Positions 1 through 7,227 of a DNA stretch of 7,227 nt are shown in pieces. Every line of letters begins with the position of its first letter. Position 1 is the stretch's first letter. A program made the translations under genes and the position numbers. The notes beneath the pieces are model-generated. The model saw only the letters and a list, made by a program, of their open reading frames with translations, was not told where the DNA came from and did no database searches. Origin of the DNA: a virus (Duplodnaviria > Heunggongvirae > Uroviricota > Caudoviricetes); the IMG/VR virus record IMGVR_UViG_2531839586_000020, positions 1 through 7,227 of that record. One strand, given 5' to 3'.

Positions 1-492
1 AACTCCGGGACGCTCAACAACGTCACGATTAACGAGAACTGTCGGGTTCTGGGAAAACTGTCCGCGAACCAGATTGAAGGCGATCTCGTTAAAACAGTGG
101 GCAAAGCTTTCCCCCGGGACTCCCGTGCACCGGAGCGGTGGCCATCAGGAACCATTACCGTCAGGGTTTATGACGATCAGCCGTTTGACCGGCAGATTGT
201 TATTCCGGCGGTGGCATTCAGCGGCGCTAAACATGAGAAAGAGCATACTGATATTTACTCCTCATGCCGTCTGATAGTACGGAAAAACGGTGCTGAAATT
301 TATAACCGTACCGCGCTGGATAATACGCTGATTTACAGTGGTGTTATTGATATGCCTGCCGGTCACGGTCACATGACACTGGAGTTTTCGGTGTCAGCAT
401 GGTTGGTAAATGACTGGTATCCCACAGCAAGTATCAGCGATTTGCTGGTTGTGGTGATGAAGAAAGCCACCGCAGGCATCAGTATCAGCTGA
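1..492 (+). CDS. J: Tail tip / host specificity protein J, C-terminal 163 codons (5' end outside window)
   Basis: Frame 1 is open from position 1 to TGA at 490-492. Translation ends ...[89 protein letters not shown], which matches my recollection of the lambda J C-terminal receptor-binding end. The ORF track starts at an internal GTG (97) but the frame is open upstream to the window edge. Confidence 0.9.
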
Positions 493-559: not shown

Positions 560-1140
560 ATGCGTAAAGTTTATGCAGCCATTTTGTCCGCAGCCATCTG
601 TCTGGCCGTATCCGGTGCGCCTGCATGGGCGTCTGAGCAGCAGGCCACACTGAGCGCAGGGTATCTTCATGCCCGTACGAACGCTCCCGGCAGCGATAAT
701 CTGAACGGGATTAACGTGAAATACCGTTATGAGTTTACGGACACCTGGGGCTGAACGTCTTCAGTATGCAGGAAGATGAGCAAAAAACGCATTACAGCGA
801 TACCCGCTGGCATGAGATTCCGTCGTAACCGCTGGTTCAGCGTATGGCGGGCCGTCTGTGCGCGTGAATGAATGGTTCAGCGCGTATGCGATGGCGGGTG
901 TGGCTTACAGCCGTGTGTCGACTTTCTCCGGGGATTATCTCGTACTGACAACAAGGGGAAAAGCACGATGTGCTGACCGGAAGTGATGACGGTCGCCACA
1001 GCAACACGTCTCTGGCGTGGGGGGCTGGCGTGCAGTTTAACCCGACCGAATCCGTGGCCATTGATATTGCTTATGAAGGCTCCGGCAGTGGTGACTGGCG
1101 CACTGACGGTTTCATCGTGGGTGTCGGTTATAAATTCTGA
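560..1140 (+). pseudogene. lom: lom (outer membrane protein Lom, Ail/OmpX family moron), frame-disrupted
   Basis: RBS GAGAGG (549-554) then ATG at 560. Frame 2 gives MRKVYAAILSAAICLAVSGAPAWASEQQATLSAGYLHARTNAPGSDNLNGINVKYRYEFTDTWG, then TGA at 752-754. Lom-like peptide then continues in shifting frames: SDTRWHE (frame 1, about 796-816), RRNRWFSV (frame 2, 821-844), VRVNEWFSAYAMAGVAYSRVSTFSGDYL (frame 3, 858-941), and KHDVLTGSDDGRHSNTSLAWGAGVQFNPTESVAIDIAYEGSGSGDWRTDGFIVGVGYKF (frame 1, 961-1137) ending at TGA 1138-1140. Span 581 nt is not a multiple of 3. Identity is confident; the pseudogene call assumes the sequence is accurate. Confidence 0.75.
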
Positions 1141-1167
1141 TTAGCCAGGTAACACAGTGTTATGACA

Positions 1168-1193
1168 GCCCGCCGGTTCAGGCGGGCTTTTTT
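1168..1193 (+). terminator. Rho-independent terminator downstream of lom
   Basis: Hairpin GCCCGCC (1168-1174) / loop GGTTCA / GGCGGGC (1181-1187), followed by a T6 run (1188-1193). Immediately precedes the stf RBS and start. Confidence 0.6.
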
Positions 1194-1775
1194 GTGGGGT
1201 GAATATGGCAGTAAAGATTTCAGGTGTACTGAAAGACGGCACAGGAAAACCGGTACAGAACTGCACAATCCAGCTGAAAGCAAAACGTAACAGCACCACG
1301 GTGGTGGTGAACACGCTGGCCTCAGAAAATCCGGATGAAGCCGGGCGTTACAGCATGGACGTTGAGTACGGCAGTACAGCGTTATTCTGTTGGTGGAAGG
1401 TTCCCGCCGTCACATGCCGGGACCATCACGTGTATGAAGATTCCACCGGTACGCTGAATGATTTTCTCGGTGCCATGACGGAGGATGATGCCGTCCGAGG
1501 CACTGCGCCGTTTGACTGATGGTGGAAGAGTGGCGCGTAACGCGTCCGGGTGGCACAGAACACGGCAGCCGCAAGAAGTCAGCCAGGATGCCGGCACATC
1601 GCCGTGAGGCGGCAACCCATGCGACTGATGCTCAGGCTCAGCACGGCAGCCAGCACTCAGCCGGCAGGCCGCGCGTCGGCTCAGTCAGCTCTTCCAGCGC
1701 AGGAACGGCATCAACAAAGGCTGAAGCATCAAAAGTGCTGCGCTGCAGAGTCCTCAAAAAGCGCGGCAGCTACCA

Positions 1776-4007
1776 GTGCCGTGCGGCGAAAACGTCAGAA
1801 ACGAATGCGGCAGCGTCACAACAATCGCAGCCACTTCTGCATCCCCGCGACCACGAAGCGTCAGAAGCGCCACCTCAGCCCGGGATGCGGCGGCCTCAAA
1901 AGAGGCAGCGAAATCATCAGAAACGAACGCATCATCAAGCGCCAGTAGTGCCGCTTCCTCGGCAACGGCGGCAGGAAATTCCGCGAAGGCGGCAAAAACG
2001 TCCGAGACGAACGCCAGGTCTTCTGAAACGGCAGCGGGACAGAGCGCCTCAGCTGCGGCAGGCTCAAAAACAGCGGCTGCGTCGTCTGCCAGTGCCGCAT
2101 CAACAAGTGCCGGGCAGGCCTCAGCCAGTGCCACCGCTGCCGGAAAGTCGGCAGAAAGTGCCGCATCGTCTGCTTCAACAGCCACAACGAAGGCTGGCGA
2201 AGCCACTGAACAGGCCAGCGCAGCAGCGAGGTCAGCTTCCGCAGCGAAGACATCCGAAACGAACGCGAAAGCGTCGGAAACCCGTGCAGAATCCTCAAAA
2301 ACGGCTGCCGCATCGTCAGCCAGTTCGGCGGCGTCATCGGCATCATCGGCGTCTGCTTCAAAAGATGAGGCGACCATACAGGCGTCAGCAGCGAAGGGCA
2401 GCGCCACGACGGCATCCACGAAGGCGACAGAGGCTGCTGGTAGTGCGACGGCAGCAGCTCAGAGCAAAAGTACGGCGGAATCTGCAGCAACGCGCGCTGA
2501 GACAGCGGCAAAACGGGCAGAGGATATTGCATCCGCCGTGGCGCTTGAGGATGCGAGCACGACGAAAAAGGGGATAGTACAGCTCAGTAGTGCGACTAAC
2601 AGCACGTCTGAAACGCTGGCGGCAACGCCAAAGGCAGTAAAATCAGCCTATGACAATGCAGAGAAACGTCTGCAGAAAGACCAGAACGGCGCTGATATAC
2701 CCGATAAGGGACGCTTCCTGAACAACATTAACGCGGTCAGTAAAACAGACTTTGCTGATAAGCGTGGTATGCGTTATGTGCGGGTTAACGCTCCTGCAGG
2801 TGCAACATCTGGAAAATATTACCCTGTTGTTGTTATGCGTTCTGCTGGCTCAGTAAGCGAACTGGCATCAAGGGTCATTATCACCACGGCAACGCGAACC
2901 GCAGGCGATCCGATGAATAACTGCGAGTTTAACGGATTTGTTATGCCTGGTGGCTGGACTGACAGGGGGCGTTATGCTTATGGAATGTTCTGGCAATATC
3001 AAAACAATGAACGAGCCATCCACTCAATAATGATGAGTAATAAGGGCGATGATTTGCGCTCTGTGTTCTATGTTGATGGCGCTGCTTTCCCTGTTTTTGC
3101 GTTTATCGAAGATGGCCTGTCAATATCCGCACCTGGTGCTGATCTCGTTGTTAATGATACGACCTATAAGTTTGGGGCAACAAATCCGGCGACTGAATGT
3201 ATCGCGGCGGACGTTATCCTTGATTTTAAGAGTGGGCGTGGTTTTTATGAGTCTCATTCGTTAATCGTTAACGATAACTTGTCGTGCAAAAAACTTTTTG
3301 CCACAGACGAAATTGTAGCGCGTGGTGGTAATCAGATTCGAATGATAGGTGGGGAGTATGGGGCATTATGGCGTAATGATGGCGCTAAAACTTACCTGCT
3401 GCTTACCAATCAAGGTGATGTTTATGGTGGCTGGAATACATTAAGACCGTTTGCTATTGATAACGCAACCGGCGAACTGGTTATTGGAACCAAACTGTCC
3501 GCAAGTCTGAACGGTAATGCATTAACAGCAACAAAGCTGCAAACGCCAAGACGGGTTTCTGGTGTTGAGTTTGATGGTTCCAAAGATATTACTTTAACCG
3601 CCGCGCATGTGGCTGCTTTTGCCAGAAGGGCAACGGATACATATGCCGATGCGGATGGTGGCGTTCCCTGGAATGCCGAATCAGGCGCTTATAATGTCAC
3701 CCGCTCTGGCGACAGCTATATTCTGGTTAACTTCTATACCGGAGTCGGAAGTTGCCGGACCTTGCAGATGAAGGCGCATTACAGAAATGGTGGTCTGTTC
3801 TACCGTTCTTCAAGAGACGGTTATGGTTTTGAGGAAGACTGGGCAGAAGTTTATACCTCGAAAAATCTTCCACCAGAAAGCTACCCAGTCGGCGCACCAA
3901 TCCCGTGGCCATCAGATACCGTTCCGTCTGGTTATGCCCTGATGCAGGGGCAGACTTTTACAAATCTGCCTACCCGAAACTTGCAGCCGCTTATCCGTCA
4001 GGCGTGA
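1776..4007 (+). CDS. stf: stf central fragment: longest intact ORF of the disrupted side tail fibre gene (Ala/Ser-rich shaft repeats plus distinct central domain). The ATG at 1776 is probably not a real start
   Basis: 743-codon ORF in frame 3. Contains [24 protein letters not shown]..., [44 protein letters not shown] and ...[21 protein letters not shown], all recalled as Stf-like. The last 16 codons (after about 3960) are out-of-frame read-through. Confidence 0.6.
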
Positions 4008-4585
4008 TCCCTGATATGCGTGGCTGGACGATTAAGGGCAAACCCGCCAGTGGTCGGGCCGTATTGTCTCAGGAACAGGACGGCATTAAATCGCATACCC
4101 ACAGCGCCAGCGCATCCAGTACGGATTTGGGGACGAAAACCACATCGTCGTTTGATTACGGCACTAAATCCACGAATAACACCGGGGCGCATACGCACAG
4201 TCTGAGTGGCTCTACGGGGTCTGCCGGTGTTCATACTCATGGTAATGGTATTCGTTGGCCAGGAGGCGGCGGTTCTGCGTTAGCATTTTATGATGGCGGT
4301 GGGTTCACTTATGTCCAGAATTCACAGTATCAAGTAAGCCCGGAGACTTCTTCCTATAGATCGTATTATCAACGTATTCAGACACAGTCAGCAGGTGCTC
4401 ATACCCACTCGCTGTCTGGTACTGCAGCAAGTTCTGGCGCACATGCACATACTGTAGGTATTGGTGCGCATACGCACTCCGTTGCGATTGGTTCACATGG
4501 ACACACCATCACCGTTAACGCTGCGGGTAACGCGGAAAACACCGTCAAAAACATCGCATTTAACTATATTGTGAGGCTTGCATAA
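3905..4585 (+). CDS. stf: stf C-terminal fragment (His-rich repeat region, receptor-binding / Tfa-dependent tip); the first roughly 18 codons are out-of-frame overlap
   Basis: Frame 2 ORF. From about 3962 it reads [52 protein letters not shown]...GAHTHSLSG...[49 protein letters not shown], matching the recalled lambda Stf C-terminus. Stop TAA at 4583-4585. Confidence 0.6.
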
Positions 4586-5335: not shown

Positions 5336-6094
5336 TTAACATTCTGGATTTTTTATTTCTAAATCAGATAAAGCATTAATTCTTATTTTTTCTAAGGCTT
5401 TATCCATGGCCCCCTTGATTCTGTATCCATAATCATCCGGTTCTTCATATTCCTGTGGGGACGGATTTGTACCAATATTCTCAATTAATTCATTTAAAAT
5501 AACTGTTACTTCTTTATTAAGAAGAACTGCTTTAGTTAACATCATCTCTGTTAATGCTGTGAAGGCTAGGCTAAGTTTCTGTTGTAGCTCTTTATTTTTT
5601 AATTTAAGATCTTCATCGTTTAGTGCTTTATCACGGTCTTCGTGAGCCTGTTGTACTTCATCCCAAAACAGCTTTTCTTGTTCTTGATTAAAATATCCTT
5701 GATAACTATTGGCTACATATGTTGGCATCATGTGAATCTCAATAATTTCAAATTCATTATCAGCCCATTTTTTTATACTAAGTAACTGAGTGTAAATGTA
5801 CTCATACATATCGTACTTTTTTTGCCAGATTTGTTGAGAAATCCACAACTCAGAAGTAATCTTTTTTTCTATATCTTTGATAGTTGTTGTATTTAATGCT
5901 AACTGCTTTCTGAGTATTTCATAGTTAGCGTTGGTAGCAGAAATTTTTGCTTTTTCAGTTATAAAAGAAACAATAAAGTTCACTATGAGAGCTGCAATAA
6001 TAATAGCGAAGCTCAACCCTAAAATCTCTGTGGTTGAGAAATTAGATGACTGTAATGCTTTGATAAGTTCAAAAAACTGTTTTTCTGTGAGCAT
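5336..6094 (-). CDS. Hypothetical single-pass membrane protein (252 aa), AT-rich cargo gene B; function unknown
   Basis: 759-nt ORF in roughly 32% GC DNA (sample counts), where long ORFs are unlikely by chance. ATG at 6094-6092 is preceded on the minus strand by AAGGT about 5 nt upstream. Hydrophobic stretch ILGLSFAIIIAALIVNFIVSFI (residues about 24-45) then a charged, probably helical domain (...EDRDKALNDEDLKLKNKELQQKLSLAF...). No recognisable catalytic motif. Confidence 0.75.
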   Translation of the reverse strand: MLTEKQFFELIKALQSSNFSTTEILGLSFAIIIAALIVNFIVSFITEKAKISATNANYEILRKQLALNTTTIKDIEKKITSELWISQQIWQKKYDMYEYIYTQLLSIKKWADNEFEIIEIHMMPTYVANSYQGYFNQEQEKLFWDEVQQAHEDRDKALNDEDLKLKNKELQQKLSLAFTALTEMMLTKAVLLNKEVTVILNELIENIGTNPSPQEYEEPDDYGYRIKGAMDKALEKIRINALSDLEIKNPEC

Positions 6095-6165
6095 GGTACC
6101 TTACCAAAAATTAAGACTGTTATCTATATAAAAATGTTACCCAAGAGGGATTGTAATGAAATAAC

Positions 6166-6187
6166 AAACCGGCACATTGGCCGGTTT
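6166..6187 (-). terminator. Hairpin directly after the stop of gene A; candidate intrinsic terminator or attenuator between the two cargo genes
   Basis: Perfect 8-bp stem AAACCGGC (6166-6173) / 6-nt loop / GCCGGTTT (6180-6187). On the minus strand it begins 5 nt after the gene A stop and is followed by GTTATTTCATT (U-rich). The stem has only 5 G:C pairs, so strength is uncertain. Confidence 0.4.
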
Positions 6188-6192
6188 GAAGT

Positions 6193-7227
6193 TCAAGGGG
6201 GTGAGATTGTAGAGGCGTTACCTTGTTCTATCACACCAGACCTAATCTTATAACTACCAAGGATGTTGACCGTTTTATTATTTTTCATCGCGTCAAAAAT
6301 TAAGCCTATTTCATCAGGATCATTGATAAAACTGGTATCAACATAGATCGGGAATGAATCATCACCTGTTGGCTCATGGCAGCTTAACGTTAGCTTATCG
6401 GCTGAGCGTTTTATACTATCAATGACAACTTCCAATGTTTGCTGCTCTGACTTAGCCTTTTCAATTGGGTTCTTGATGATTTCTTGAACCTGACCTTGCG
6501 AAAGCTCAATATTGCTGGCCCCGCGGATCGTCACTTTGTCTGCATCAGATGCACCTTTAAGAACTCCAGTGTATGCCTTAGCTGTGTGCTCTTGGATACC
6601 TTCGGCGCGCTCTATCGTATCAATACCTTCATGTGCTTTTATTGCAGACAGCATACCATCGCGTAGAATTGTCATCCGCTCGGATTCTGCTCGCTGTTTT
6701 GCTTCTTCCAGTTGTAACTCAATAGTTTTGGTTTCGACTTGTGTCTGATGATCTAAGTAGGACGTACCGACCCATGCGCCGCCTAAAACTAAGACAGCAA
6801 ACAGGAAACACATTGTTTTCTGTCTTGGGCTCATACCTTGCGTTACCTTCTCAAATGCGTTACCAAAGGAATCAATAAGTTCTTTAACTGAGGTGATAAT
6901 TTCTGTGCAGCCAGGATTGATAGTAAAAACCAACTCTGCAGCTTCTCGATCCTCAGCAGTGAGCTTCTGTAAGTTAGAGGTTTTGTACTTGATTAGAGTA
7001 AAAACCTTGTACATCTCAGTTTGAAATTCACAGATACCCTGTGCCAAACTTGCAGGCAGAGTACCATTATACTTATCTTCATCACCAAAAAATTTGAAAT
7101 CAATACTTTCTAAGAAGTTTAACTTCAAATTTTCAATGTGGATTTCTTCGCCTGAAATAACTCGTCCGAAAATATTTTCTATATCATCAATATCATTGAT
7201 TTCATAGGCCTGAATTGCATCTTCCAT
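6193..7227 (-). CDS. Hypothetical membrane-anchored protein (at least 344 aa), AT-rich cargo gene A; function unknown
   Basis: 1035-nt ORF on the minus strand, stop TGA at 6195-6193. The ATG is the last three bases of the window (7227-7225), so the RBS and promoter are not visible and the true start could be upstream. Acidic N-terminal region, one hydrophobic segment MCFLFAVLVLGGAWVGTSY (residues about 139-157, coded about 6757-6813) with basic residues on its N-side (SPRQKT), then a roughly 185-aa C-terminal domain ending ISPP. No Walker, nuclease or other motif recognised. Confidence 0.7.
   Translation of the reverse strand: MEDAIQAYEINDIDDIENIFGRVISGEEIHIENLKLNFLESIDFKFFGDEDKYNGTLPASLAQGICEFQTEMYKVFTLIKYKTSNLQKLTAEDREAAELVFTINPGCTEIITSVKELIDSFGNAFEKVTQGMSPRQKTMCFLFAVLVLGGAWVGTSYLDHQTQVETKTIELQLEEAKQRAESERMTILRDGMLSAIKAHEGIDTIERAEGIQEHTAKAYTGVLKGASDADKVTIRGASNIELSQGQVQEIIKNPIEKAKSEQQTLEVVIDSIKRSADKLTLSCHEPTGDDSFPIYVDTSFINDPDEIGLIFDAMKNNKTVNILGSYKIRSGVIEQGNASTISPP

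Follow-up and report, generated by a model that had tools for sequence, protein, structure and literature searches.

The single base that is missing between positions 3959 and 3960 of the window, the 7,227-nucleotide stretch of prophage DNA analysed here, is very probably an artefact of assembly consensus at a single-nucleotide polymorphism (SNP) between prophage copies rather than a mutation. The contig from which the window comes shows 44 events in its first 4 kb, all of them deletions and this loss included; when all are restored, an intact 1137-aa side-tail-fibre protein (Stf) and an intact Lom result, with no further defect. Most likely, the real prophage carries an intact stf of 1137 codons, in which codon 930 specifies Asn or Asp, and an intact tfa downstream of it.

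The window agrees base for base with positions 2-7228 of AQBW01000105.1, a 30,776-bp contig of the draft assembly (GCA_000358615.2) of ETEC isolate p0305293.15, and the frameshifted 104-aa N-terminal Stf fragment that it encodes is an exact-sequence match to ENG47479.1 of E. coli p0305293.15. The window therefore starts one base from the end of the contig, which begins inside the repeated J gene. PMC4309559 lists P0305293.1 as an ETEC isolate from Bangladesh, dated 2011 and sequenced at GSCID, and, judging from the isolate name and the sequencing centre, p0305293.15 presumably belongs to the dataset of Sahl et al. (PMC4462620), a project covering many colonies per patient in which paired-end Illumina HiSeq2000 reads at >200x coverage were assembled with Celera Assembler.

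The sequence corresponds to the right-hand end of the late operon of a lambdoid prophage, with the gene order J-lom-stf-tfa (Table 1). As deposited, stf remains in frame from its start for the first 56 codons only and is broken 30 times, and lom lies in three pieces, with ORFs that include 560-754 and 970-1140 and that the source record lists as three Ail_Lom fragments; once repaired, Lom agrees with the 199-aa protein called in related loci. The repaired Stf starts with a phage_tail_N domain (PF08400, residues 1-134, E = 1e-71) and contains a Gp34_trimer region (663-762), a Collar domain (907-954) and a Phage_fiber repeat; its intact homologues in the Ec-U11 and ETEC1732 loci (L001 and L002) are annotated as proteins of 1132-1137 aa. 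Downstream, the exact Tfa protein is found in four assemblies. It is followed by two cargo genes, the first of which gave zero matches in Pfam, PADLOC and PHROG searches, and many genomes encode the exact protein of this gene at the corresponding locus beside prfC. Since a dinI-like gene and then prfC come next beyond the two cargo genes in related genomes, the prophage adjoins prfC.

Table 1. Features of the window, with positions counted from its first base.
Feature	Position	Strand	Basis or remarks
J, 3' end (tail-tip gene)	1..492	+	open frame running off the left end; PF12421 Ig_GpJ_C in the source record; gpJ at the homologous position in L002
lom (Ail/Lom outer-membrane protein)	560..1140	+	three ORFs as deposited, intact frame once repaired
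Deletion zone 1	745..963	.	in lom; 14 events, 19 bases missing
stf side-tail-fibre gene	1205..4585	+	1137 codons after repair of 30 internal events
Deletion zone 2	1370..1869	.	stf N-terminus; 29 events, 32 bases missing
Haplotype-switch interval, L035-type to L036-type	3890..4042	.	missing base is the sole L035/L036 difference inside
Missing base (first position of codon 930, Asp/Asn; G or A)	3959..3960	+	alignments to intact homologues
tfa tail-fibre assembly chaperone, intact, 194 aa	4585..5169	+	PF02413 Caudo_TAP, E = 4e-44
Cargo gene 1, 252 aa, no known family	5336..6094	-	context only
Cargo gene 2, 344 or 350 aa by start codon; phrog_6191, function unknown	6193..7227	-	context only

Frame 3 is open from 1776 to 4007 and ends with 15 out-of-frame residues followed by a stop, while frame 2, open from 3905 to 4585, carries on to the C-terminus of Stf. 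Alignment to three intact homologues (Ec-U11, ETEC1732 and phage 204576, the last being L003) places exactly one missing base between 3959 and 3960, in codon 930 of the 1137 of the repaired stf, where the frame passes from 3 to 2. The ORFs and the three alignments thus confirm the single-base deletion near 3960, with a shift from frame 3 to frame 2, that an earlier note had proposed from the letters of the sequence; the lambda Stf sequence given in the note was also right, lambda orf-314 reading LMQGQAFDKSAYPKL, and the full-length fibre of roughly 1100 aa that it expected agrees with the 1137 aa encoded by the repaired gene. The loss of one base holds, but its attribution to the D codon GAC holds only in part: codon 930 is GAC (Asp) in some natural alleles and AAC (Asn) in others, and the base may have been an A, which is what the closest allele over both flanks, L003, has at the site. 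Moreover, the site does not separate the shaft from the C-terminal region, as had been suggested, and instead falls in the middle of the Collar domain assigned by Pfam.

Around the shift the sequence reads CAG ACT TTT ACA AAT, with a run of four T only. If the ribosome or RNA polymerase slipped by one base on this run (ACU UUU ACA), the product would be a fibre of full length in which Tyr replaces Asp/Asn; specifically, tRNA-Phe on the UUU at 3957-3959 could re-pair with the UUU at 3956-3958, making the next codon UAC, in the downstream frame. That the site serves such recoding is nonetheless the least probable of the explanations considered, to the point of being almost negligible, as the X XXY YYZ slippery heptamer is absent, just as the earlier note had said, and nothing in the sequence points to programmed frameshifting; furthermore, homologues use a single frame, the two-frame arrangement is seen in none of 5,516 homologous places, and the deposited gene contains 29 more frame breaks upstream that lie beyond rescue.

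In addition to the base missing at the site, comparison with the intact stf homologues reveals events upstream of it that had gone unnoticed in the earlier reading. Against L001-L003, there are about 43 further gaps, all of them deletions, with zero insertions; in total, 43 events upstream of 3960 account for 51 missing bases and are confined to the two zones of Table 1, which lie 0.7-1.9 kb from the contig end within J. When the zones were searched among 5,426 complete E. coli genomes, the best matches paired 301 query bases with 320 record bases and 551 with 583. Window 700-1000 aligned to its best match (L005) over 301 columns with 0 mismatches and 14 gaps, and window 1350-1900 to its own (L004) over 551 columns with 0 mismatches and 29 gaps, each gap in either alignment corresponding to one or more bases absent from the window; both zones together thus comprise 852 aligned columns, 43 gaps, 0 mismatches and 0 insertions. 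Because the stf frame is lost already at 1370, the literal sequence would yield no fibre at all, and the truncated fibre without a Tfa-dependent tip that the earlier note had deduced from the 3960 deletion does not follow from a draft contig in which that deletion is one of 44.

Unpolished long-read homopolymer errors were considered and ruled out by the use of Illumina reads and by the lack of homopolymer bias, the number of single-base events that adjoin an identical base (14/37) being about that expected at random; in the two zones, the losses are spread roughly evenly over A, C, G and T. Pseudogene decay was likewise discarded, for a set of 43 deletions placed on polymorphic positions, unaccompanied by any substitution or insertion, represents no mutational spectrum. 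Among 12-13 natural alleles, 38 of the 43 events (12/14 in zone 1 and 26/29 in zone 2) fall on polymorphic columns, versus 64 of 696 background columns (9%) taken from the same zones (Fisher p = 1e-30, the count of 38 allowing for ambiguity in gap placement); a cruder, MAFFT-based count gives 30/51 deleted versus 81/719 background positions on polymorphic columns.

The same kind of damage is found in two sister assemblies of the project, L022 (AQBX01000095.1) and L023 (AQCA01000157.1), in which lom and the N-terminal part of stf likewise show deletions only; those of L022 occupy many matching homologous positions, even though L022 represents another prophage locus. An E. coli genome contains several near-identical copies of the J-lom-stf-tfa module, and the regions that correspond to the two zones have a median of 2 copies and up to 13. 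Within the allele panel, no single pair of natural alleles differs at all the deleted positions of zone 2, suggesting a contribution to this zone from three or more copies or from an allele outside the sample. Beyond 3960, the following 6.7 kb of the contig (to 10,670) are free of indels relative to an orthologous locus, apart from a block at 4211-4388 that is naturally hypervariable.

The position of the 3960 event itself coincides with a difference between prophage copies. In the form that has A at the site (AAC, Asn), a segment of 122 nt recurs at 100% identity in >40 complete genomes, many of them ETEC, and other genomes have G. Both variants occur in the complete ETEC genome 504237, with G in the stf copy beside the bio region (L035) and A in the one near potB (L036); the two copies are identical over window 1000-3750. 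In the window, six SNPs from 3776 to 3890 match the L035 type and, from 4042 on, most differing positions match the L036 type; in the interval 3890-4042, the two types differ at the G/A position alone. The base missing from the window thus occupies the only column that tells the two types apart within a stretch of ~150 nt, across which the window switches from one allele type to the other. Natural alleles with the same L035/L036 mosaic do occur, and the closest of them, L003, retains the base as A.

This coincidence bears on the possibility of a random sequencing or base-calling error that entered the consensus independently of repeats. Errors in length are conceivable at this place, which adjoins the T4 run and, where the allele has A, two consecutive A; on the other hand, the reported >200x Illumina coverage should outvote an error of this type, which would also leave both the match to a SNP and the haplotype switch without explanation. 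We thus regard it as very improbable, although not quite to the degree of recoding.

Searches for a second carrier of the deletion returned none. Not one of the 5,516 homologous places found across 5,426 complete E. coli genomes lacks the base, and all top matches carry it; the exact junction string has zero matches in the genome, viral and metagenome contig collections, the first of which was also searched with a degenerate string. The 489-aa truncated product is encoded by the source contig alone among 153 billion gene positions, and the 226-aa and 743-aa ORFs have no exact protein match in the collection. Within the sequences searched, both the junction string and the truncated product are confined to the source contig, and the lesion does not recur in independent ones.

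The 189-aa ORF that starts with MRGW was also tried as a marker of the deletion and rejected: it is present on 15 contigs and, among the 10 places shown, none of those inspected has the same deletion. In the places inspected, this ORF belongs to Rac-like remnants with unrelated upstream DNA, or is accounted for by contig starts, N-runs or, in L011, an extra base. Other drafts are interrupted close to the site. A contig of another strain of the same project (L012), which has A at the site, starts at 3943, 17 nt upstream of it; two metagenome scaffolds (L013 and L015) have N-runs there; and in the assembly of a sibling isolate the locus is broken into a 1414-bp contig (L021), the one sibling contig recovered here, which starts at window 4097, beyond the site.

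These data allow a consensus artefact to be weighed against the possibility that the stf of the ETEC prophage has truly lost one base, in this isolate only, which would abolish the C-terminal 207 residues. Frameshifts in stf are known both in nature and in the laboratory, as in the case of orf-401/orf-314 of lambda PaPa and of HK630, where the annotation reads 'missing C'. Furthermore, the event is isolated, 2.1 kb from the nearest cluster of artefacts, and could thus be a separate genuine mutation that happens to sit on a polymorphic site; the indel-free state of the following 6.7 kb outside the naturally variable 4211-4388 block points the same way, and the SNPs just beyond 3890-4042 are retained, so that not every difference between copies was dropped. 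Opposed to this are the facts that 3960 is one of 44 deletion-only events, the other 43 of which are demonstrably technical; that it lies exactly on an inter-copy G/A polymorphism, the only one in the haplotype-switch interval; that no sequence searched provides a second carrier; and that the gene is not otherwise intact, considering the 29 additional events at 1370-1869. On balance, a genuine deletion is improbable, if less so than a random error.

A consensus artefact between prophage copies could have arisen as follows. Reads or unitigs from different copies would have been merged during assembly, and the consensus would have assigned no base to columns where the copies disagree; at such a column, an A/G mismatch was probably set out as two half-filled gap columns. 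In the lom and stf N-terminal regions, the outcome would be the loss of 51 bases at inter-copy SNPs, and at 3960 the loss of a base at the only G/A difference within the 150-nt overlap between the two allele types. Celera consensus of mixed alleles is known to produce short-range mosaicism and can give a sequence that is found in no read (PMC1964779), and collapsed repeats result in correlated SNPs in the multi-alignment of reads (PMC1868940). From the pattern of the data we infer the step by which a mismatch is converted into a gap, which is documented in neither of these papers. The argument is drawn from assembled sequence, and the second stf copy to which it appeals is one known from genome 504237, that is, from another strain.

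The window shares several features with collapsed-repeat errors of overlap-layout-consensus drafts. As in such errors, it concerns a multi-copy prophage near a contig end, its discrepancies are found at positions that distinguish copies, and its consensus equals no natural allele; the differences are of a single technical type, and the pattern recurs in L022/L023. The window departs from the described behaviour in that a base is dropped per SNP instead of one allele being chosen.

The split stf of lambda PaPa offers a second comparison. In both cases one base is missing in stf and two ORFs precede an intact tfa, and Ur-lambda, unlike PaPa with its split gene, encodes an intact 774-aa Stf. However, as the earlier note had maintained, the two sites are distinct: the PaPa lesion affects approximately residue 499 of the repaired protein, whereas that of the window affects codon 930, inside the Collar domain. 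Moreover, the PaPa lesion is present in two lambda-group records inspected, including that of HK630, which annotates a frameshift mutation, whereas the lesion of the window is present in one draft contig only and bears the marks of an assembly error.

The repaired gene closely resembles the intact lambdoid Stf/Tfa modules of E. coli (StfR-like), being the same in length, domain order and J-lom-stf-tfa context; the modules of ETEC1732, phage 204576 and Ec-U11 match the window at 97-98% of DNA positions, with the missing bases counted as differences. The N-terminal PF08400 domain is found together with the Collar, the fibre repeats and Caudo_TAP. Whereas the intact modules have stf in a single frame, that of the window is interrupted 30 times as deposited, and an uninterrupted frame is obtained only after repair.

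The two main possibilities make different predictions for the reads of the isolate. If the missing base is an artefact, the reads should carry CAGACTTTTGACAAATCT and/or CAGACTTTTAACAAATCT and essentially none should carry CAGACTTTTACAAATCT; at least two read populations should be seen at each dropped column, with about 2x or higher coverage over 745-1869. If the deletion is real, reads anchored in the unique cargo genes (5336-7227) should instead show TTTTACAAA, without G or A.

For phage biology, the 3960 event carries very little weight, since even a real deletion would simply add a further private lesion, of the pseudogene type, to those of prophage tail-fibre genes. In that improbable case, the loss at codon 930 in p0305293.15 would be a fresh natural knock-out of stf inside the Collar, possibly made leaky by -1 slippage on U-UUU-U, and would be the counterpart, at another site, of the loss of side fibres in lambda PaPa. 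As a warning, the result matters more widely: the p0305293.15 draft and at least two sister assemblies of the ETEC project contain dense deletion-only errors where lambdoid prophage copies differ. These errors have passed into GenBank and RefSeq as fragment proteins, such as WP_001666020.1 (104 aa, named 'prophage tail fiber N-terminal domain-containing protein') and the 189-aa and 489-aa pieces of Stf, as well as spurious antisense ORFs. Pseudogene counts, calls of prophage intactness and tail-fibre typing that are based on such drafts will be wrong in these regions; at the same time, a one-base gap at a known inter-copy SNP is a recognisable signature that lends itself to automatic screening.

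Two dense zones of the window (745-963 and 1370-1869) differ from other alleles by deletions only, with 43 events removing 51 bases and not a single substitution. As a consequence of these events, lom is split into three ORFs and the stf frame is lost from codon 56 onward. The events coincide with positions that are polymorphic between alleles and are seen again in the sister assemblies; both zones are therefore assembly artefacts. The source record (L008) calls some of the long alternative-frame or antisense ORFs that cross stf as genes (217, 70 and 39 aa) because the true stf frame is broken; the part that they cross is an Ala/Ser-rich repeat with a GC content of 62%. Such ORFs are almost certainly spurious.

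Features of the window and gene calls of its source record
Feature	Position	Strand	GC
Long ORF over stf, alternative-frame or antisense	1519-2577	+	
Long ORF over stf, alternative-frame or antisense	1754-2419	-	
Long ORF over stf, alternative-frame or antisense	1861-2532	-	
Source-record gene call (L008)	1639-1758	-	
Source-record gene call (L008)	1755-2408	-	
Source-record gene call (L008)	2366-2578	+	
Low-GC cassette, first gene	5336-6094	-	31-44% (both genes)
Low-GC cassette, second gene	6193-7227	-	

The stf stretch around position 3960, where the window lacks one base, is a repeated difficulty for assemblers: one metagenome contig (L011) carries an extra base around its positions 240-275 (GCTAGTTGCC against GCTATTGCC), and two others (L013 and L015) have 10-N scaffold gaps upstream of a 189-aa ORF, these defects lying at most about 60 nt from the equivalent of 3960. 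In the large-contig assembly UGBT01000002.1 (L026), stf itself is in fragments, and so are many core genes near prfC (yjjI, tatD, a patatin-like gene and a BON-domain gene), which suggests an assembly that is indel-prone in general, a second case of frameshifts that should not be taken as biology.

In contrast to the deletion-only zones, a block of the Stf C-terminal region (4211-4390) looks like real receptor-binding diversity. This block is hypervariable among natural alleles, with dense substitutions and compensating in-frame indels, as exemplified by Ec-U11, the prfC-adjacent locus L025 and one stf copy of ETEC genome 504237 (L035) versus the window, ETEC1732 and the other copy of 504237 (L036). 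Within it also falls the single mismatch over the 1414 bases shared with a sibling isolate's contig (L021), at position 4344, where the window has A and the contig has G; this may be a further site of mixed copies.

Flanked by tfa on one side and by a dinI-like gene and prfC on the other, the two-gene cassette encodes proteins for which Pfam and PADLOC searches gave no match; the sole match of the second is phrog_6191 (function unknown). Each contains a hydrophobic segment, judged by eye, that is probably membrane-spanning. The cassette is kept at the prfC-adjacent locus across many E. coli genomes, including those with a differing adjacent tail-fibre module, and may represent candidate prophage cargo or defence genes. 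At this locus in other genomes (L025-L034), the same junction of cargo genes, dinI and prfC is attached to quite dissimilar tail-fibre modules: examples are a Collar-type Stf paired with Tfa, a fibre of 1003 aa accompanied by opposed tfa genes and a resolvase fragment, and a fibre of the Peptidase_S74 type. Some genomes have lost most of their tail genes here. The pattern indicates modular exchange and decay at the prfC-adjacent prophage locus.
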